Part shown: positions 5,059-63,373 of the stretch, in pieces
How positions within the stretch are numbered: position 1 is the stretch's first letter
Layout: every line of letters begins with the position of its first letter
IMG/VR virus record: IMGVR_UViG_3300047678_000169
Location: 16,239 to 80,238 of that record
DNA from: a virus
Reading direction: 5' to 3' (one strand)
Length of the DNA stretch: 64,000 nucleotides
Program-made: the position numbers and the translations under genes
Notes under the pieces: model-generated
Database searches by the model: none
Told to the model about the DNA's origin: nothing
What the model saw: the letters and a program-made list of their open reading frames with translations, nothing else

Positions 5059-5695
5059 TTGATTTAAGGGGCCAAGGTGTTACTAAGTCAAATTTATCCT
5101 CATCATTTAAATTCAATTCAACAATTTGACAATTTTTTGAGTTACCGAGATTGTGAAATTCATCAACTGTCCAATGCAACCATCGCATCAAAAGGACTCT
5201 CATAGCGTATCCATGTGTAACAATAAGAACGTTCTCAGGAAAATCTTCTTTCTTGAAGTCTCTATAAATTGTTTCTAAAAATCCAGTCATTCGGTCATAC
5301 ACATCAGCTCCAGATTCACCATCGGGAATTCTATAGAAGAAGTGTCCATATGCTTGTCTTTCCTTATCTATCGCAGAGTGCTCCTCCGCGACTCCCAAGT
5401 GACCCCACTCTTGTTCACGTAATCTTGGGTCTTCCTTGACAAAATCAACATTATCAGAATCGATATTGACCGACATGTTTCTCCATGTTTCCTTCGTTCT
5501 TAAAAATGGGGAAACATAAACTCCAAGCTTCTCCCAGCTAATTTGGTCGGAAATATACTTACCAGCCTTTAGAGATTGGTCAATGCCAAGCTCTGTCAAA
5601 GGAATCTTCCAATCTGGAATAACTGCGTGAACGTTTAGGTCGGCATTGGCAGTTGATTGCCCATGTCTGATGATAAAGATTCTCTTTGGCTTCAT
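5036..5695 (-). CDS. Histidine phosphatase (phosphoglycerate mutase family)
   Basis: RHGQS, SPFLRT, LREQEWG, GES, VTHG. Confidence 0.9.
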   Translation of the reverse strand: MKPKRIFIIRHGQSTANADLNVHAVIPDWKIPLTELGIDQSLKAGKYISDQISWEKLGVYVSPFLRTKETWRNMSVNIDSDNVDFVKEDPRLREQEWGHLGVAEEHSAIDKERQAYGHFFYRIPDGESGADVYDRMTGFLETIYRDFKKEDFPENVLIVTHGYAMRVLLMRWLHWTVDEFHNLGNSKNCQIVELNLNDEDKFDLVTPWPLKSNDYIKTK

Positions 5696-7041
5696 ACTTC
5701 GTCTTCGAAAAAGTCTACTTCTGGCTTTGGTTGGTGGTTATAGAAATCCAAACATTTTTGATTAACCATAATCTTGCTTGGATGAAATTTAGTCAATCGA
5801 AGAGAGCCGAGGTTGCGGACTCGACTTAGAGCTACATACACCTGCCCCGCGGCAAATGCTTCATTGATGTTGATTTCAGCGCGGTCGAGTGTCTGTCCCT
5901 GCGACTTGTGGACAGTCAATGCCCAAGCCAACTTGAGAGGAATTTGTTTACGTGAGGCAACAATGGTTGGCTTCATGTTGCCCAAACCATCGTCCTCAAT
6001 CTGTCGTAGTTCCCACTTTTGGGGTTCGATTGATTGAGTCAACCCATCGGCAAATTTTACTGTTACAAACTCAGGATACATTTCGGTGACAATACCAACG
6101 CTTCCATTGACCAATTTCAATTCAACGTCAAGATTCTTGAGAAGCATGACTTGAGCACCAACCTTCAACTCCAATGTAGAAGGTGCTCGGCAGTTCTTAT
6201 CGAAGAATTTTGTCCACTGTTCGCCACCTTCATCGGAACAGTAGTAATGTCGTGAAGCTCCTTCGATTTTATTGAGCTCTTTTTGGTTGAATTCATCTAC
6301 GTCAACGTTTTTACAAAACAATTTTACCGGCACAATACCATCTGTGGGGAAGTCACGGCCAATACAATCGTCGAGAATGTCGAAGTTTTTACACTCACCC
6401 TTTCTCACTTCGTTGAGAAATTCAGCAAATTCTGGTTCGTCATGCTGACGAACAATCTCTGTTAGATGAACAGTGGAAACTCGAGCGTCCTTCCACGCTT
6501 GAGATTCGAAAGCAAAAACTTCCCTTTCAAATCTTTCAAATACAGGAGGAAGCTGGAGAAAGTCTCCGACAAAAATTACTTGAATACCACCAAACGGCTT
6601 TCCGTTATTACGGATAAATTGGCAGACAATATCAAGCTTTTCTACCAAGTCAGCTTTAGCCATTGAAATTTCGTCAATGATTAGAACCTTGGAACTCTTG
6701 ATTCGATTGCTGGCCTTTCGATTGGACGACGCCTTCTCCAACAGAGCCATACCATTTTCATCCGCTAATCCCATTCCAGACCAAGAATGAATGGTGATTC
6801 CGCTGATGTTAATGGCCGCGACTCCTGTAGTAGCGGTCTTACCATAGAATATCTCCATTTCATCTAGGAACTTGATGAGCAACATCATACAGTATGTCTT
6901 GCCCGTTCCTGCAGGGCCTGTCAAGAAGATATTTTTCTTGTCAAAAAATCTGACGAAGAACTCTTTTTGTAGCTTGGTTAGTTCCTTCCATTCAGGCCTT
7001 TGCTTGAATATAGAAAGTAATGAACGATTTACAGACGCCAT
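5692..7041 (-). CDS. Pif1-family SF1B DNA helicase
   Basis: GPAGTGKT, IIDEISM, PFGGIQVIFVGDFLQLPPV, LAWALTVHKSQGQTL, YVALSR. Confidence 0.95.
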   Translation of the reverse strand: MASVNRSLLSIFKQRPEWKELTKLQKEFFVRFFDKKNIFLTGPAGTGKTYCMMLLIKFLDEMEIFYGKTATTGVAAINISGITIHSWSGMGLADENGMALLEKASSNRKASNRIKSSKVLIIDEISMAKADLVEKLDIVCQFIRNNGKPFGGIQVIFVGDFLQLPPVFERFEREVFAFESQAWKDARVSTVHLTEIVRQHDEPEFAEFLNEVRKGECKNFDILDDCIGRDFPTDGIVPVKLFCKNVDVDEFNQKELNKIEGASRHYYCSDEGGEQWTKFFDKNCRAPSTLELKVGAQVMLLKNLDVELKLVNGSVGIVTEMYPEFVTVKFADGLTQSIEPQKWELRQIEDDGLGNMKPTIVASRKQIPLKLAWALTVHKSQGQTLDRAEININEAFAAGQVYVALSRVRNLGSLRLTKFHPSKIMVNQKCLDFYNHQPKPEVDFFEDEV

Positions 7042-12154: not shown

Positions 12155-12648
12155 TGTAAATCTTTCTTGAGTTGTTCAACGTTTTTAGAGCATATTCCAT
12201 ATGCTTTCTTCATTTCTTCTCTAGACCACCCATTCTCCTCAGGCATTACTAATACACTTCTTGGTAAAGCAAATTTATAAGGATTGTTAACATGTGTCCA
12301 AACATAAGCTCGGCTGGTGATGGTATAGTCATCCTCTTGATGCCAAAAATAATGCATAGGATTGAATGTAGCCGTCAACCATCTTGGACACGATGAAAGG
12401 ACGCTCAAAGCATCAATGTTCTTACAATGGAGCCACAACCCATCCTTGAATATGAAATCACTTGGAACTTCATATTCAGGTTTGTCATGTCCTAAGAACC
12501 ACTTACCATCGATATATCGAATATCAACCTCGACATCATATCCGAGCATCAAAGCAAAGTTGACCCTTTCTGGATGATTTTCTAATCCAGAATTTGGCCC
12601 GGCTATCAATGCTCTGTGTGCGATTAATTTCAAGACTTGATTCCCCAT
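12151..12648 (-). CDS. Glycerophosphodiester phosphodiesterase-like (PLC-like) protein
   Basis: IAHRA, ENHP, DVEVDI, LGHD, WLHCKN, YFWHQ, GICS. Confidence 0.8.
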   Translation of the reverse strand: MGNQVLKLIAHRALIAGPNSGLENHPERVNFALMLGYDVEVDIRYIDGKWFLGHDKPEYEVPSDFIFKDGLWLHCKNIDALSVLSSCPRWLTATFNPMHYFWHQEDDYTITSRAYVWTHVNNPYKFALPRSVLVMPEENGWSREEMKKAYGICSKNVEQLKKDLQ

Positions 12649-13835
12649 TTGTTCACAGCAATACCATATTCCATTCCATATGCCTTATCGATAGATTGTC
12701 TGATGGCTCTTGCTCCGGCAACCGTTCCCATTGGGTGTCCGTGAATGGCTCCCCCAACGTTTGCCATATAATCTACTCCAAATCGTTTGTTGATACCTTC
12801 AATCAATCCGGCGTGCATACCACAGCTCAAAGCTGGGACTACGTTTCCATCACGAAGAACCTTTAAGGTCTTTTGCAAATCTTCTTCTGATTCGCTCATA
12901 TATCCACCCCACATTCCTGAATGGATTGTGTCAGCTCCCATCAAGGCAGCTAGCTGACAGATAATATCCCAAGCGATGCTGAAGCGGTGTGATTTGTCGG
13001 TGAATACTTTGTCGCCACTCTTTTGAAAGTGAAGATACAACGGGAGGTCCAATCTTCTAACTGAATTATATGCTCCAAGACCACACCAAACATTCAAGTG
13101 AATACCATTGCCACCAGCATCAGCAACAAATTTGGCTCTGTCCAAGATAGCGTGTGGGTCAGCATTGATGGCGGTGCAATAGACCACCTTGCGGCTTTGA
13201 TTGTTGAGCCAATTTGAAATCAATGGAACTCTTTCCTTTAAAGAACACACCGATGGGTTGGATAGAATTTCGTCTTCTTTGATAAAATCTACTCCACCAT
13301 CAACCAACTCCTTTACCATTTCCAATAGAATCTTTGGAGAAATTCCAGTTTTTGGTTTGATGATAGCTCCAAACAGAGGCTTGTCATATTGGCCTGTGTA
13401 GTTTCTCATTCCGGAGAAACCGTATTTTGGTCCTTTAAAATGCTTCTTGACGTTATCAGGAATATCTAAACCAATCAAACGACAGCCTTGAATTATGTCA
13501 ATATCCATTTGTCCTCCCATTAGTTGACACAATAGGTGAGAAATACCATCATCTTCCCAATCGGTGTTTGCTACTGGAAATCCAATTCTAATGTCTCCAT
13601 GTGTCTTCTTTCGTAGGTCATCTTCAGTAAATTCGGTTATAACAATACACGAATGATTTTCAAATAATTCATCTGTTTCGTGAATGCTACGCACGTTTGG
13701 ATTACCAACACTCTGACCAATGGCTAGGTTCCATGCTGCGTCTCTAAGATTTGAGTCGAGCGTAGAACGCAATTGATACGTGGCAATTACATAATCGTTC
13801 TGATTAACATCTGTCAGTGGTTTAAATAACTTCAT
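12630..13835 (-). CDS. RuBisCO-like protein (form IV, RLP)
   Basis: FKGPKYG, GAIIKPKTG, GGVDFIKEDE, DTIHSG, PALSCG, GGAIHGHPMGTVAGARA; lacks E60, N123, H294 and K334 equivalents of true RuBisCO. Confidence 0.92.
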   Translation of the reverse strand: MKLFKPLTDVNQNDYVIATYQLRSTLDSNLRDAAWNLAIGQSVGNPNVRSIHETDELFENHSCIVITEFTEDDLRKKTHGDIRIGFPVANTDWEDDGISHLLCQLMGGQMDIDIIQGCRLIGLDIPDNVKKHFKGPKYGFSGMRNYTGQYDKPLFGAIIKPKTGISPKILLEMVKELVDGGVDFIKEDEILSNPSVCSLKERVPLISNWLNNQSRKVVYCTAINADPHAILDRAKFVADAGGNGIHLNVWCGLGAYNSVRRLDLPLYLHFQKSGDKVFTDKSHRFSIAWDIICQLAALMGADTIHSGMWGGYMSESEEDLQKTLKVLRDGNVVPALSCGMHAGLIEGINKRFGVDYMANVGGAIHGHPMGTVAGARAIRQSIDKAYGMEYGIAVNKWGIKS

Positions 13836-19285: not shown

Positions 19286-20902
19286 TTACATTCCTTCTTG
19301 TGGAATCTGCTGTTGAATTTGCTCGGCCTCATCTTCAATGTCAGCAATCATACATTCGGTGGTCAATAATAGACCAGCGATGGATGCAGCGTTTTGAAGA
19401 GCGGTGCGCGTGACCTTTGTTGGGTCAACAACTCCGGAAACAACCAAGTCTTGATAAACATCGGTTGCGACATTGTAACCGTAATTTCCCGTGTTCTTCA
19501 ACACTTCACTTACTACAACGTCTCCACTCTTTCCTGCATTTGAACACAGCATCTTGATTGGGTGTTCGATGGCTCTACGAACAATTTGAGCTCCAATTTG
19601 TTCATCGCCTTCTAACTTGAGAGCGTCAATAACCGAAGCACATCTCAATAGAGCAACTCCTCCACCCGGAACAATTCCCTCTTCAACTGCGGCACGTGTT
19701 GCGTGCAAGGCATCTTCAACACGGTCTTTCTTTTCTTTCATTTCGGATTCGGTGGCTGCGCCCGTGTGGACAACTGCAACTCCGCCAGTTAGTTTGGCAA
19801 GGCGTTCTTGAAGCTTCTCACGCTCGAAGTCAGAAGTCGATTTCTCAATTTCATTCTTAATGAGCTTAATACGAACTTCAATGGCAGCTGGTTTGCCCGT
19901 TCCGCCGATGATGGTGGTGCTATCCTTTGTTACAATAATCTTCTTAGCCTGACCCAAATCAGCAAAGGTTAATTTGTCAAGATTGAGCCCAAGCTCAGAG
20001 GTAATCAATTTTGCTCCAGTGATGGTCGCAATGTCCTCGAGGGTAGCACGGCGTCTATCACCAAATCCAGGTGCCTTAACAGCACATGAAACGAAAGCTC
20101 CACGAACTCTGTTTACAACCATAAAGGCGAGAGCATCACCCTCAACATCTTCAGCTATAACAAGGAGCTTCTTTCCCATCTTAGCAATTTCTGTAAAGAA
20201 TTTGGCCAATGGGGCTATGGTGGTGAGCTTCTTTTCGATAACCAGAACCAAAGCGTCATCAAGAACAGCTTGTTGGGTTTCTTGGTCTGCAAAATAAGCG
20301 GAAATGAATCCCTTATCGAACTGCATACCCTCAACGACCTCAAGAGTCGTATCCATTGAGCTAGCTTCTTCAACGGTGATTGTTCCATCCTTACCAACCT
20401 TATCCATGGCGTCGGCAATAATGTTACCAATTGAGGTATCCCAGTTGGCGGAGACGGTGGCGACCTGGCGAATCTCTTCGCTGCTGCTTACCTTTTTAGA
20501 GATTTTGGCTAATTCTGCTACAGCAGCTACTACAGCCTTGTCGATACCACGCTTCAAATACACCGGATTTGCGCCAGCGGCTACGGTCTTTAGACCTTCA
20601 CGATAGATTGCGGATGCAAGAACCGTTGCGGTGGTTGTTCCGTCTCCGGCCAAATCGTTGGTCTTGGAAGCAACTTCTTTTACCATTTGAGCACCCATGT
20701 TCTCAAACTTATCTTTGAGTTGAATAGACTTAGCAACCGTAACTCCGTCTTTGGTAATCAATGGAGAACCAAATCCACGTTCGATGGCGACATTGCGACC
20801 CTTGGGCCCCAATGTTACACTGACCGCATTTGATAGGGTTGTTACTCCAGCCAAGATTTTATTTCTGGCCTCTGCACTAAATAGGATTTCTTTTGATTTC
20901 AT
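19286..20902 (-). CDS. groEL: Chaperonin GroEL
   Basis: [37 protein letters not shown]; lacks the GGM tail. Confidence 0.98.
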
Positions 20903-37722: not shown

Positions 37723-38127
37723 TGGTGGACCTGCGGGGAGTTGAACCCCGGTGTTTCATAAATTGCTCATCAGACATATACAAGCGTTAACACGGTGGAT
37801 ATGATTGTGGTTAGTAGTGTGCTCCACAAAAATTAGAGTCAGTAGTTTCTTCGTTGTTACAGTCTCACTTTCTCACAACGAACATATCAGCAGAGGTTGA
37901 CGTATTGACCCACTTATCTGCGTGGTGGAATACGGACTGCTCAGTTTATTAAGCAGCGACAGCCATAGCGGCTCCAACGTTCTTCGCCTTGCGGAGAAGT
38001 GTTAGAACATTTAGCTTAGCAAGATTTCTCTTAGCATTTAGTTTTTGTAATCAGGATTATGCAGGATGTTTACCACCTGCGCTTGCGTTCCGAGCTCAAC
38101 CCATAAAGTCGAATCCTGGACAGGCCC
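37723..38127 (-). ncRNA. ssrA: tmRNA
   Basis: 5' GGGCCUG..GGAUUCGAC; 3' T arm plus CAGGUCC-A-CCA with G3.U70; tag ORF 38035-37949 (AKRNLAKLNVLTLLRKAKNVGAAMAVAA) after the UAAAU resume context. Confidence 0.93.
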
Positions 38128-49937: not shown

Positions 49938-50021
49938 TGGTAGCGAGGGTGGGAGTCGAACCCACATTCCTTTCGGAGACTGATTTTGAGTCAGTTGTGT
50001 CTGCCATTCCACCACCCCGCC
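49938..50021 (-). tRNA. tRNA-Leu (CAA), canonical
   Basis: Long V-arm hairpin, CU CAA AA loop. Confidence 0.92.
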
Positions 50022-50292: not shown

Positions 50293-50378
50293 TGGTAGCC
50301 AAGGTGGGATTCGGACCCACAAGGACATCGCATTCTAAGTGCGGCGGTTCTTCCAATTTCCCTTTCGTCCACTTGGCC
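50293..50378 (-). tRNA. tRNA-Leu (UAG), non-canonical split-variable-arm form
   Basis: GGAC-GAAA insertion after U8; GUCC in the short variable region. Confidence 0.8.
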
Positions 50379-50386
50379 ATAAATTC

Positions 50387-50797
50387 TTAAAAAAGAGGCT
50401 TCTTTTTTTCTTCTTTGCCTTTTTTGATTTGTTCTTTTGTTGGTTTTGGAGCTTCTTTAGTTTTCCAAGCTAAATGTTGGTAAGCATATGCCAAATTGCA
50501 AATTGGGCAATCTTCCGAATCTTTTTCTCCATGTCTTGCTGGCTTTAAATCTTTTGTAACAGAGCCAAATCCAGCATTGCAACAATTGTTTCCACAACAA
50601 GGACAACGAACAAACATACATTGGCACAAACCACAATAGTCCCATGTGAACATGAAAACTCTTTTTTCTTTCCAGTCTTTGTGCCATCCATTTTTCTTAG
50701 AGCCAATTTCTTGCTCTCCACCTTTCATATAGGTTGGGTCAAAAATTTGCTTAAATGGTTTATATTTAAATTTTCGCATATAGCACATTGACTTCAA
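50387..50797 (-). CDS. Cys-rich Zn-binding hypothetical protein
   Basis: CGLC, CPCCGNNCC, CPIC. Confidence 0.65.
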   Translation of the reverse strand: MKSMCYMRKFKYKPFKQIFDPTYMKGGEQEIGSKKNGWHKDWKEKRVFMFTWDYCGLCQCMFVRCPCCGNNCCNAGFGSVTKDLKPARHGEKDSEDCPICNLAYAYQHLAWKTKEAPKPTKEQIKKGKEEKKKPLF

Positions 50798-51057
50798 TAC
50801 TGATTTTAGTCAAGATATAAAATAGACCCACTTTTTATTAATGTTGGTGGGAATCATTATTATCATTACCGTCTGTTACGACAAGTAGTGTTAACAATAA
50901 CAACACGATTGTCGCTTGTATCATAAAATTTTGAATCAGGCCCGTCTCAGTTGTGAACGCTCAAGAAGAGCGAACCTTTAACCTGTGGTCAGACTGAATC
51001 GCGTTTTTCAGCCCAAATATACGAATCTACACGTAAGCTGGTTCGGTCTAATTCAAA

Positions 51058-51136
51058 TGGTGGGAAGTCAGCGAATCGAACGCTGTTATTTCGCTCTTCA
51101 GGCGAACGCTGAAATGACCACACTAGCTCACTTCCC
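51058..51136 (-). tRNA. tRNA-Phe (GAA)
   Basis: UUCGC CU GAA GA GCGAA, CCA. Confidence 0.85.
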
Positions 51137-51719
51137 AATATCACGCCACATTGTTTCCAACGTGTTCAAGCATTCATTCACTGTTTTCCAGTCGATGTTG
51201 CTCTTTAAATTGTTTATTACCCAATTCTTTTGGCTTTTCGAACCAATTGGATAAACCCATCTCTTCTTTCCAGCAGATTCCCCTTGATAAACTGCGTTGG
51301 TTGCCTTGTAGATGGCTCCCGTGTGATGGCTTGAATCTGAATATGTTAAAATCACTTTTATTTCTGGAAATTTTGTTCCCACATAATCATTACACTTGGA
51401 TATTGAATACCAGCTAAATTTTTCTTGGAATCCTTTGGAAGAATAGCTTCATCATCAACCAAGAACAATCTTTTCAATTCAAGAATGTCTCTATTGGAAA
51501 CTTCAACACCATTTTTGAAAATTGCCTTGTAAGCCGTGAAGGCTATTGGAGAACCATAAATAACAGTTCCTACCATCACACCATTATAGAAGATACCCAT
51601 GTAAATCTTTGCCGCACTTGGGTAATCTCCAAGATAATGCTTCGTAACAAAGTCTTTCACAGAGTTTCTATCAACTTCCTTGAAAGAAACAGCCTGGGGT
51701 CTAAAAACTCATTAATCAT
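51128..51719 (-). pseudogene. Mom-like adenine-modification acetyltransferase with two frameshifts
   Basis: KHYL, GTVIYGSP, ELKRL, TYSD..HTGAIYKATN..YQG are spread over three frames. Confidence 0.75.
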
Positions 51720-51750
51720 GAGTATAAATATAACGAAATCGTATATAAAA

Positions 51751-51836
51751 TGGTAGCCGTGGTGGGATTCGAACCCACAGAGGATAAGACGTTTTAAGTG
51801 TCTCGGTTGTAGCCAATTTCCCTAATCCACACGGCC
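51751..51836 (-). tRNA. tRNA-Leu (UAA), non-canonical split-variable-arm form
   Basis: GGAU-UA insertion after U8; AUCC in the variable region. Confidence 0.8.
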
Positions 51837-51901
51837 AAAAATTATATTCTTCTTTTCTTCCATCCAGTTTCGATAGAAAGGGTTTTTGAAACTATTTTAA
51901 G

Positions 51902-51987
51902 TGGTGGGCATAAGAAGATTCGAACTTCCAAGGACTACGCATTTTGAATACGTCGCTTCTACCAATTTCGCTCTCGTCCACATGCCC
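51902..51987 (-). tRNA. tRNA-Leu (CAA), non-canonical split-variable-arm form
   Basis: GGAC-GAGA insertion after U8; GUCC in the variable region. Confidence 0.8.
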
Positions 51988-52848: not shown

Positions 52849-52933
52849 TGGTGCGGATAGAGGGACTCGAACCCCCAAGCCTTTCGGCACATGCACCTCA
52901 AGCATGCGTGTCTACCAATTCCACCATATCCGC
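52849..52933 (-). tRNA. tRNA-Leu (GAG), canonical
   Basis: Cloverleaf with V arm. Confidence 0.93.
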
Positions 52934-53598: not shown

Positions 53599-53684
53599 TG
53601 GTGCAAAGGACTGGATTCGAACCAGCGAAGCCTTACGGCGAAAGCTTATGAAACTCCCTGTTTTAGCCACTTACCTACCCTTGC
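53599..53684 (-). tRNA. CAU-anticodon tRNA with a long variable arm (identity uncertain)
   Basis: UU CAU AA loop; V arm GCC-GUAA-GGC; A73. Confidence 0.75.
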
Positions 53685-53695
53685 GTTAAATTAAT

Positions 53696-54028
53696 CAGAG
53701 AAGCTATAGCCGATGTTCTGTCCAGAACCGAAGTCCCTGACCTTACATTTCTCTATGAGACGTAAATTTTGCCTCATTCCAAGCTTTTCGCCGGGATGCC
53801 CCTACCTTAGTATGCAAACGAGCGACTCACGCTCTCTACAATTTTTGGGTTACTGCGGATGATGTGGTATTAACGAACCGCTTGTGTCCGAGAACCATAG
53901 ACCCTCCTGATTTGGACTCAGGCACTATGGCGGTTGGATGATACAGCATTGTTCTCCCAGCTACGAGTCGAGCAGCATCGAACTTCCTCTATGGTTTTCT
54001 TTCCCACAGCGTAAGGTCGCTTACTCTG
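53696..54028 (-). ncRNA. rnpB: RNase P RNA
   Basis: GAGGAAGUUCGAUG (CR I) and ACAGAACAUCGGCUAUA (CR V) form P4; P2 GACCUUAC/GUAAGGUC; P1 CAGAG/CUCUG. Confidence 0.88.
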
Positions 54029-54032
54029 AAAA

Positions 54033-54124
54033 TGGTAGGCGTAGCTGGACTTGAACCAGCACTCGGCACCTATCAGGTGCGCCAGGTTTATAAAACCTGC
54101 GGTGCTACATTACACAATACGCCC
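54033..54124 (-). tRNA. tRNA-Ile (UAU) with a long variable arm
   Basis: CAGGU UU UAU AA ACCUG; V arm GCAC-CUGAUAG-GUGC. Confidence 0.8.
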
Positions 54125-56044: not shown

Positions 56045-56607
56045 TGGTGGACTAGTCGGTTATCACCCGAACACGCGATTTAGCTGGATTGCATTACTGG
56101 TTAATCGCCATCGTAGCCCGTAAATAGTGGACGTTCGGGACTCGAACCCGTATCTCTCTCCTCATCTGTCTTCACATCGGAAAGCGTGTTGCCATATCTT
56201 GGCGGAAGTTGCCTCTACACCAGACGCCCATAAATTAGTGACAAATCAGGCAGAATCGAACTGCCGCCCTATTTGATTCTGCACCAGCAGAAATAGCGGA
56301 ATCGAACCGCCCGAATCCTCATCGAGAGGATGTGCTACCATTACACCATGTTTTGTCAAAGTGGTGCGTTCGGAAGGAATCGAACCTTCGCCTGCTTACG
56401 CTGGTTACGCGTCGCCCTTCCAACATGGGCCTTGATACAAGTGCTTACCGCCTTCGAAGAGCAGAGTCACGTTCAACCATTTCCGCCACAAACGCAAATT
56501 GGTGAGTTACAGGAGGATTTGGCACCTCCACGAAGTTATTCCGCCGCTAACGGCAATGCTATTACCTTCGACCCCTTAAAGGCTGCGTCTTCTTCCGCCA
56601 TACACTC
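56045..56607 (-). ncRNA. Run of five aberrant tRNA-like RNAs (56045-56119, 56126-56229, 56237-56357, 56362-56495, 56500-56607)
   Basis: Each has paired ends and a T-arm-like hairpin but a non-canonical interior. Confidence 0.6.
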
Positions 56608-58001: not shown

Positions 58002-58151
58002 TGGAGCCGATGATGGGAGTCTAACCTAGCAGATGAATTAGCTAACTTTGTCCAACTAATCAACATGTATTTTCATTGGGAGCTACCATTCCTTTCTACG
58101 ACATTTTCTTCAACTTAGAAAGTTGATGCTCTATCCTTGAGCTACACCGGC
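58002..58151 (-). tRNA. 150-nt tRNA-Arg (UCU)-like RNA with a large variable-region domain
   Basis: Normal acceptor, D and anticodon arms; ~75-nt insert. Confidence 0.7.
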
Positions 58152-61391: not shown

Positions 61392-61476
61392 TGGCAGGAG
61401 AGGAGCGACTCGAACGCTCAATGTCTTACGACGGCAGTTTTGGAGACTGCTGCAATACCAATTATGCGACTCACCT
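61392..61476 (-). tRNA. tRNA-Trp (CCA) with a long variable arm
   Basis: CU CCA AA loop, G73, V arm GUC-GUAA-GAC. Confidence 0.82.
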
Positions 61477-62181: not shown

Positions 62182-62268
62182 TGGGGTGATTAACGGGATT
62201 TGAACCCGCACGGATTTCTCCGCTAGATTCACAGTCTAGCGCGTCTAGCCAATTTCGCCATAACCACC
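62182..62268 (-). tRNA. tRNA-His (GUG) with a Leu-like D arm and long variable arm
   Basis: G-1/C73, CU GUG AA loop, V arm CGGA-GAAA-UCCG. Confidence 0.82.
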
Positions 62269-63076: not shown

Positions 63077-63160
63077 TGGTGGTGTCGGTGGGACTCGAAC
63101 CCACGATGTTTGTATTTCGGCTTAAAAGGCCGAACCAATCGCCGCTATGGGGACGACACC
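63077..63160 (-). tRNA. tRNA-Lys (UUU) with an extended variable region
   Basis: CU UUU AA loop; 12-nt V region. Confidence 0.8.
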
Positions 63161-63286: not shown

Positions 63287-63373
63287 TGGTGCTCCGGGAG
63301 CGACTCGAACCCCCGTTGGTTATTACACATCGGCTTAAAAGGCTAAACTATTCGCCGCTATAGGAACCGAAGC
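63287..63373 (-). tRNA. tRNA-Lys (UUU) with an extended variable region
   Basis: CU UUU AA loop; 15-nt V region. Confidence 0.72.

Follow-up and report, generated by a model that had tools for sequence, protein, structure and literature searches.

A phage family of leucine-type tRNA genes with a putative long-range helix in place of the variable arm

We analyzed a 64,000-nucleotide stretch of viral DNA (hereafter the window), the final 64 kb of IMG/VR virus record IMGVR_UViG_3300047678_000169, which is 80 kb long and has a completeness estimate of 29%. Its minus strand carries three transfer RNA (tRNA) genes, tRNA-Leu(UAG), tRNA-Leu(UAA) and tRNA-Leu(CAA), here labeled genes A, B and C, in which the usual variable-arm hairpin is missing. 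Instead, an insert directly after U8 is complementary to part of the variable region, and we call the pairing between the two helix X. Comparison with homologues indicates that helix X exists as a conserved, covarying pairing, more than chance would produce. We consider it probable (about 0.7) that the three are real leucine-type phage tRNA genes, members of a family so far seen in phage and metagenomic DNA, and that helix X replaces the hairpin.

Gene anatomy and covariation of helix X

The minus-strand reading of the three genes was checked base by base against the plus strand. The original prediction had described three genes of 86 nucleotides (nt) without a variable-arm hairpin, with GGAC or GGAU after U8 complementary to GUCC or AUCC in the variable region, and this description was borne out base for base. 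Read from position 50378, gene A consists of the acceptor strand GGCCAAG, U8, GGAC, GAAA, the D arm GGGA-AAUUGGAAG-AACC and G26, followed by the anticodon arm CCGCA-CUUAGAA-UGCGA, U44, GUCC, UU, the T arm GUGGG-UCCGAAU-CCCAC, CUUGGCU, A73 and CCA. The connector inserts after U8 are 6–8 nt long (GGAC-GAAA in A, GGAU-UA in B, GGAC-GAGA in C), and the variable regions of 7–8 nt (U-GUCC-UU, U-AUCC-UCU and A-GUCC-UU, respectively) contain no internal pairing or hairpin. The two-nt U8–N9 connector of a standard tRNA, together with its variable region of either a 4–5 nt loop or a local hairpin, is thus absent from all three genes, as is the class II hallmark, a local stem-loop longer than 10 nt lying between positions 44 and 48. 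Their total length of 86 nt is nevertheless that of an ordinary tRNA-Leu. As read from the genes, the bases that would ordinarily build the variable-arm hairpin are divided, part of them lying in the U8/G10 connector and part in the short variable region.

In each gene the acceptor stem forms seven of seven pairs (with G1.U72 or G7.U66 wobbles) and is followed by A73 and an encoded CCA. The anticodon arms have a stem of 5 base pairs (bp) and 7-nt loops (CUUAGAA, CUUAAAA and UUCAAAA) with U33 and a purine at position 37; the non-Watson–Crick pairs in these stems are C27.A43 in gene A and A31.C39 in gene B. The T arms also have a 5-bp stem, with the loop UUCGAAU in B and C and UCCGAAU in A, and the D loops are leucine-type (AAUUGG...), with UUGG, including G18G19, in all three. 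A D-stem difference and a shared G12.A23 mismatch had also been predicted, and both are observed: pair 11–24 is G-C, G-C and C-G in A, B and C, and G12.A23 as well as A13.A22 occur in all of them. G12.A23 is not specific to this fold; it was rejected as a hallmark because canonical tRNA-Leu(UAA) genes of Solirubrobacterales have the same D-stem mismatch.

Homologues were sought with patterns that described the D arm alone and later the D arm plus the T loop, scanned over IMG/VR and over JGI/ENA metagenome contigs. The connector and variable region were left free in these patterns, so helix X was unconstrained and the searches could not bias the pairing result. Every tRNA-like match with a post-U8 insertion in the two scans also had the complement before the T stem. 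Among the 90 metagenome pattern matches listed, 57 were helix-X tRNAs, all of them recovered by the covariance model described below, and the remaining 33 proved to be class I tRNAs or matches by chance, so that the list conceals no sequence that has the insertion but lacks the helix. A covariance-model search with the extra helix, as the original prediction had proposed, was run over whole viral records and loci with a model (R1) built from eight sequences. It returned 42 and 81 matches. Once duplicates, one canonical tRNA and all matches below 80 nt in length had been removed, the set comprises at least 80 distinct helix-X sequences in at least 53 viral or metagenomic loci; counts out of 80 refer to the matches listed. 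A scan for GGGU-type relatives found chance matches only, besides the complete phage genome G004, and when D stems whose 11–24 pair is A-U or U-A were sought, the matches were canonical class II Leu tRNAs and three loci already in the set.

Three paralogues with one compensatory change alone prove little, and it is the homologues that carry the case. The commonest versions of helix X are GGAU/AUCC (41 of the 80 listed sequences) and GGAC/GUCC (16), and two subtypes can be told apart, GGAC plus 4 nt with UU versus GGAU plus 2 nt with UNU. Rarer versions are GGGU/ACCC and GGCC/GGCC (two each), GGCC/GGUC and GAAC/GUUU (one each), and two 5-bp helices of unrelated sequence, GUAGU/ACUAC and GUAUC/GAUAC (one each). 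Ten further sequences hold single-step G.U or U.G intermediates: GGAU/AUUC (6), GGAU/GUCC (3) and GGAU/AUCU (1). In alignments A2 and A3, 99% and 98% of the helix X cells are paired, and double changes occur at three of the four pairs, the pair types being GC/GU/UA/AU (position 2), AU/CG/GC (position 3) and UA/CG/UG/GC (position 4). When the 3′ strands were shuffled among sequences, the observed pairing was reached in 0 of 10000 trials, and sliding the 3′ partner by 1–3 columns lowered the whole-structure pairing from 97–98% to 35–48%. RNAalifold predicts helix X unaided. The carriers of rarer versions are 64–91% identical elsewhere to molecules with another version, so several independent changes must be involved. 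The predicted long-range helix with covariation in place of the hairpin is thus upheld by the double changes, by the two unrelated 5-bp versions and by the RNAalifold result.

Leucine identity, decoding and occurrence

A73 is invariant in alignments A1 and A2, and the helix-X rows inspected from A3 all end in A. U8 is invariant in A2, A14 A15 U16 Y17 G18 G19 are conserved, U54 and A58 are present, and a U lies directly before the T stem in 79 of the 80 listed sequences, where it could make an A15–U48 pair. Position 55 is C instead of U in gene A and a few relatives; T loops of this type, UCCGAAU, recur at L155:1501-1583, L155:1336-1418 and L425:1638-1720. In A2 and A3 the stems of the acceptor, anticodon and T arms show the covariation seen in working tRNAs. 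Of 72 distinct sequences in A3, 47 begin the acceptor stem with G1.U72 (columns 1/102), which is unusual for bacterial tRNA-Leu. For E. coli tRNA-Leu, one study gives the identity set as A73, A14, A15–U48, G18G19–U55C56 and U54–A58 (PMC6614811). These E. coli-type identity elements appear to be kept in the helix-X tRNAs, the tertiary pairings being presumed from the bases at these positions.

All 80 listed sequences have leucine anticodons (UAA 39, CAA 26, UAG 14, GAG 1). The trio of UAG, UAA and CAA recurs in the window and in phage genomes G003 (219 kb, 96% complete) and G004 (147 kb with terminal repeats, 100% complete). In the two cluster loci of G004 that were scanned, GAG is the only other Leu tRNA listed by ARAGORN, and the helix-X genes are the only tRNAs for UUR and CUA found by ARAGORN or R1. 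Codons of these kinds are common in the window, where UUG (33%), UUA (21%), CUA (14%) and CUG (6%) together make up 73% of Leu codons. A class Ia synthetase (PF00133) was found in none of five records (G000, G002, G003, G004 and G007), while control genomes matched in 14 of 14 cases; if the helix-X tRNAs are charged, the host leucyl-tRNA synthetase (LeuRS) must therefore act. Bacterial LeuRS reads A73 and the shape of the core or elbow, and reads neither the anticodon nor the variable arm. One study reports that the single LeuRS of Streptomyces coelicolor leucylates a naturally occurring tRNA-Leu(CAA) of type I, whose variable loop has 5 nt, and that in the type II species of this organism the variable-arm base pairs can be deleted without loss of acceptance (PMC6614811). 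Leucylation by host LeuRS is plausible because the bacterial enzyme ignores the anticodon and tolerates loss of the arm. The helix-X tRNAs are thus likely leucine decoders, judged by their genes: host LeuRS would charge them, and they would decode UUA/UUG and CUA(/CUG) during infection.

Detection by standard gene finders is uneven. ARAGORN called none of the three in the window, missed nine of ten relatives and gave wrong boundaries for the tenth. With the Rfam tRNA model (RF00005, gathering score 29), gene B scores 40.3 bits, and genes A and C score 24.3 and 24.0 bits, both misaligned in their 5′ part; the low scores of A and C arise because the model takes GGACGAA as the acceptor strand. 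This implies that standard gene finders undercount phage tRNAs, in this case missing possible decoders of about 73% of the phage Leu codons.

Cellular genomes were scanned with the D-arm plus T-loop pattern, using one genome per species (185,579 species). The cellular matches to the D arm are mainly canonical variable-arm tRNA-Leu(UAA) genes of Solirubrobacterales, and many contigs from Solirubrobacterales metagenome-assembled genomes (MAGs; L210–L286) have the D arm GCGA...AAGC with G12.A23, as in the phage family. The helix-X fold was found on only one cellular contig, CAZDRR010000001.1 (139 kb), which is binned with a Candidatus Saccharibacteria MAG (L224/L311/L314). This contig has two helix-X tRNAs, is syntenic with the complete 147-kb phage G004 and has tRNAs in common with it; a protein-coding segment also matches a metagenome contig as long as G004, at 60% identity over 131 residues. 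Phage DNA is therefore its most likely nature, whether the phage was binned wrongly or the bin hints at the host. When R1 was run against 150 further genomes from each of the two phyla concerned, no match passed E = 1e-10; the G019 contig was the positive control in the second of these searches. Among GenBank phages, blastn with a relative's gene pair and gene A gave no match to the helix-X family, and blastn with a 4-kb query gave canonical Leu genes only.

Proposed fold and alternative explanations

Helix X is nested, not a pseudoknot, and encloses the D and anticodon arms. Its first pair links the base that follows U8 with one that stands two or three positions ahead of the T stem, and its last pair is between the base after N44 and the last base ahead of the linker of 2–4 nt that leads to G10. 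In the standard fold, the top of the D stem is where U8 and U48 are found, and its bottom is the site of G10, G26 and N44. Both ends of the helix are thus tethered to the core (U8/U48 and N44/G10), so a protruding arm is not possible. The original prediction had pictured a variable-arm helix made from two distant strands; the helix stands, but an arm that protrudes as in class II tRNAs does not, given these tethers. From connectivity, a 4-bp helix X would run from top to bottom beside the four-layer D stem, with its 3′ strand on the normal path of the variable loop and its 5′ strand in the place of N9, and the chain would reverse direction after the 5′ strand to enter the D stem. The linkers of subtype 1 are typically GAAA, GAGA or GGAA, which are GNRA-type turn sequences. 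We infer that helix X lies along the D stem and that the L-shaped tRNA is preserved, in which case a small bundle of two helices would stand in for the base-triple core.

Several observations weigh against a base-paired helix X in working leucine tRNAs. Alignments A2 and A3 were fitted to a model containing helix X, and their pair counts lean towards the helix. About five sequences are exceptions, namely GGAU/ACCC (three sequences, with an A.C at pair 3 that could be a step between A-U and G-C), GGUC/GUCC (one, with U.U) and GGAU/UUCU (one, ambiguous). GGAY/RUCC, including the single-wobble forms, accounts for 85% of the sequences, so pairing may not be the sole reason for the conservation, part of which could come from a sequence-specific contact. 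Minimum-free-energy (MFE) folding of single sequences recovers helix X for gene A alone, and its z-scores are non-significant, as is usual for tRNAs. (An extended D arm, GGUU...GAUC, proposed by MFE folding for one G004 gene, was rejected because a paralogue lacks it.) The D stem has just two Watson–Crick pairs, the gene A T loop (50304–50320, minus strand) has C in place of the near-universal U55 (pseudouridine), and a search for sequencing runs with this DNA found two DNA runs of a moss metagenome, the probable source, and no RNA run. In a reading without a real helix, GGAY and RUCC would be two single-stranded motifs from one ancestor whose complementarity is coincidental. The two commonest versions, carried by 57 of the 80 listed sequences, do track the linker-length subtypes, so that the bulk of the C-G/U-A signal may trace to one event, possibly an ancient one. 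Yet the pairing is also kept in independent versions (GGGU/ACCC, GGCC/GGCC, GUAGU/ACUAC, GUAUC/GAUAC and GAAC/GUUU), passes through G.U and U.G intermediates and collapses when the partner strand is slid, which makes mere coincidence very improbable. We give next to no credence to decaying tRNA-Leu pseudogenes that have lost half of the variable arm: the low standard-model scores, the weak D stem and the one C55 T loop would suit such decay, but at least 80 distinct sequences on about 50 contigs from several habitats keep all stems by compensatory change, and in the scanned cluster loci of G004 these genes are the sole source of UUR and CUA tRNAs found by either program.

The genes could also encode tRNA-like RNAs that do not decode leucine, such as decoys, primers or regulators, or tRNAs charged with another amino acid. 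The array and the related phages are rich in tRNA-shaped RNAs that deviate from the cloverleaf, and gene finders reject the helix-X genes. We regard this as quite improbable, because nothing is missing from the anticodon stem-loops, which keep U33 and a purine at 37, because the leucine anticodons throughout the listed set complement the rest of the phage tRNAs, and because all four classical stems covary as in working tRNAs. All of the sequences have A73; other synthetases with a tolerance for A73 generally depend on their own anticodons, and seryl-tRNA synthetase would need a long arm and G73. For leucine-decoding helix-X tRNAs, the preferred reading, the origin of the fold could be tolerated drift, enabled by the indifference of LeuRS to the arm, or an advantage against host tRNA-directed enzymes. 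Several class I isoacceptors in these arrays have long arms and the Ser tRNAs keep theirs; to our knowledge, no class II identity other than Leu has a synthetase that can do without the arm. With a free tRNA body plan in these phages and a LeuRS that does not need the arm, tolerated drift would thus be sufficient. Escape from host defense, in which the armless rebuilt core would be a poor substrate for host tRNA nucleases or modifying toxins yet still be accepted by LeuRS, would be an addition to helix X and not an alternative to it. Phage tRNAs are described as escaping anticodon nucleases through sequence changes (PMC10264068), and the eukaryotic Schlafens SLFN11 and SLFN14 are reported to be nucleases selective for type II tRNAs (preprint 10.64898/2026.02.03.703619). 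In the cellular and phage scans the helix-X family was found only in phage DNA, and related phages have class-I-sized armless Leu tRNAs, so arm loss is recurrent. On the other side, the literature search turned up no bacterial nuclease directed at tRNA-Leu or able to recognize the variable arm. A bacterial Schlafen, the only one studied, cleaves class I tRNAs (Lys, Met, Val, Phe and Ile) in their anticodon arms. In the window, canonical Leu(CAA) and Leu(GAG) persist alongside the helix-X genes, and tolerated drift accounts for the data equally well. A role in defense escape is therefore speculative and, in our judgment, unlikely, though it has some chance of being right. We see as rather improbable the fuller proposal that helix-X tRNAs are fully functional Leu adaptors, which host LeuRS would charge and which EF-Tu and the ribosome would accept, and that their five-helix core is a phage escape route resisting host enzymes that recognize the class II arm or the base-triple core.

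In the natural departures from the standard tRNA that are known, stems differ in length or arms are lost. To join the two strands that usually make up the base-triple core by a fifth, non-local helix would be a new way to fold an L-shaped adaptor, and a direct test of how much of the tRNA core is needed by LeuRS, RNase P, EF-Tu and the ribosome. If functional, the scaffold could serve orthogonal tRNA engineering, and protection from host tRNases, should the fold confer it, would add a type of counter-defense that is new. Were the fuller proposal true, phage–host conflict would have driven a new tRNA fold, and a ready-made orthogonal tRNA scaffold would exist in nature.

The tRNA array and relation to known tRNAs

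The three genes lie in a minus-strand array that extends from about 49 kb to the end of the window and holds more than 35 tRNA genes and an RNase-P-like RNA (ARAGORN and Rfam; Table 1). The canonical Leu(CAA) and Leu(GAG) genes that had been noted in this array are indeed there, with GAAA-capped variable-arm hairpins. The window also has class I-identity tRNAs of 84–94 nt with GNRA-capped extra arms (Met-type CAU, Ile UAU, Trp, His and Lys), and phage G004 has long-armed class I-identity tRNAs as well (Lys, Asn and Ala; L181:1410-1688 and L158:508-601). Two tRNA-like genes in the window have large internal inserts, and three open reading frames (ORFs) have Pfam matches.

Table 1. Positions of helix-X genes, helix strands and other features in the window, and of class-I-sized Leu tRNAs on related contigs
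Feature	Position	Strand	Details
Helix-X tRNA-Leu(UAG), gene A	50293-50378	(-)	86 nt including CCA; model R1 99.6 bits
Gene A helix X 5′ strand GGAC	50367-50370	(-)	Directly after U8 (50371); GAAA linker 50363-50366
Gene A helix X 3′ strand GUCC	50323-50326	(-)	Between U44 (50327) and UU (50321-50322); pairs with 50367-50370
Helix-X tRNA-Leu(UAA), gene B	51751-51836	(-)	86 nt including CCA; model R1 91.4 bits
Gene B helix X 5′ strand GGAU	51825-51828	(-)	After U8 (51829); UA linker 51823-51824
Gene B helix X 3′ strand AUCC	51782-51785	(-)	Between U44 (51786) and UCU (51779-51781)
Helix-X tRNA-Leu(CAA), gene C	51902-51987	(-)	86 nt including CCA; model R1 94.1 bits
Gene C helix X 5′ strand GGAC	51976-51979	(-)	After U8 (51980); GAGA linker 51972-51975
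Gene C helix X 3′ strand GUCC	51932-51935	(-)	Between A44 (51936) and UU (51930-51931)
Canonical class II tRNA-Leu(CAA)	49938-50021	(-)	ARAGORN and sequence; variable-arm hairpin UCC-GAAA-GGA
Canonical class II tRNA-Leu(GAG)	52849-52933	(-)	ARAGORN and sequence; variable-arm hairpin GCC-GAAA-GGC
Long-armed class I-identity tRNAs	53599-53684, 54033-54124, 61392-61476, 62182-62267, 63077-63160, 63287-63373	(-)	
tRNA-like genes with large internal inserts	56365-56495, 58005-58151	(-)	131 nt and 147 nt; Rfam tRNA about 36 bits
RNase P RNA-like element	53702-54024	(-)	Within the tRNA array; Rfam class B 42.7 bits versus gathering score 97
Predicted phage transfer-messenger RNA (tmRNA)	37723-38127	(-)	ARAGORN
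ORF, PIF1 helicase match	5692-7041	(-)	Pfam, E = 3e-38
ORF, RuBisCO large-chain catalytic domain match	12630-13835		Pfam, E = 2e-39
ORF, Cpn60/GroEL match	19286-20902		Pfam, E = 4e-74
Class-I-sized Leu tRNAs (GAG, CAA, UAA, UAG)	L154:1239-1316, L154:1414-1491, L158:1229-1306, L162:1501-1574, L166:1501-1574		

No description of the helix-X fold was found in reviews of non-canonical tRNAs or in the wider literature, in a search largely outside subscription journals. One close comparison is canonical class II tRNA-Leu, with which the helix-X tRNAs share the Leu anticodon, A73, the D loop A14 A15 U16 Y17 G18 G19, an unpaired 13.22, a length of about 86 nt and U48 before the T stem; Solirubrobacterales members also share G12.A23. 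They differ in that the helix-X variable region has no hairpin and provides one strand of a helix whose other strand lies between U8 and G10. Type I tRNA-Leu, as in S. coelicolor tRNA-Leu(CAA) and in mitochondria, is the nearest precedent in function, similar in lacking a variable arm and in being charged by a bacterial-type LeuRS for which the arm is dispensable (PMC6614811). It has a 2-nt connector, a 5-nt variable loop and no extra helix, whereas the helix-X tRNAs combine class II length with a fifth helix. Related viral contigs have class-I-sized Leu tRNAs of 74–78 nt with CCA, Leu-like D loops, A73 and 5-nt variable loops; these often adjoin helix-X tRNAs and are phage counterparts of the S. 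coelicolor type I tRNA-Leu.

Other natural tRNAs are likewise non-cloverleaf yet competent in translation, namely tRNA-Sec (8/5 and 9/4), the allo-tRNAs (8/4 and 9/3; PMC5389517) and tRNA-Pyl (PMC7609411), and among them are some that are phage-borne and some with Leu anticodons. These RNAs have altered stem lengths, or shortened connectors and variable loops, and keep four or five local hairpin arms. None of these forms pairs connector 1 with the variable region, in agreement with the prediction that the fold is unlike allo-tRNA and tRNA-Sec. Phage tRNAs that escape anticodon nucleases (PMC10264068) resemble the helix-X tRNAs in being phage-encoded, in differing from those of the host and in possibly being selected by tRNA-targeting systems. 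There, the changes are point substitutions in the anticodon loop or stem, whereas in the helix-X tRNAs it is the topology of the core that appears to have been rebuilt.

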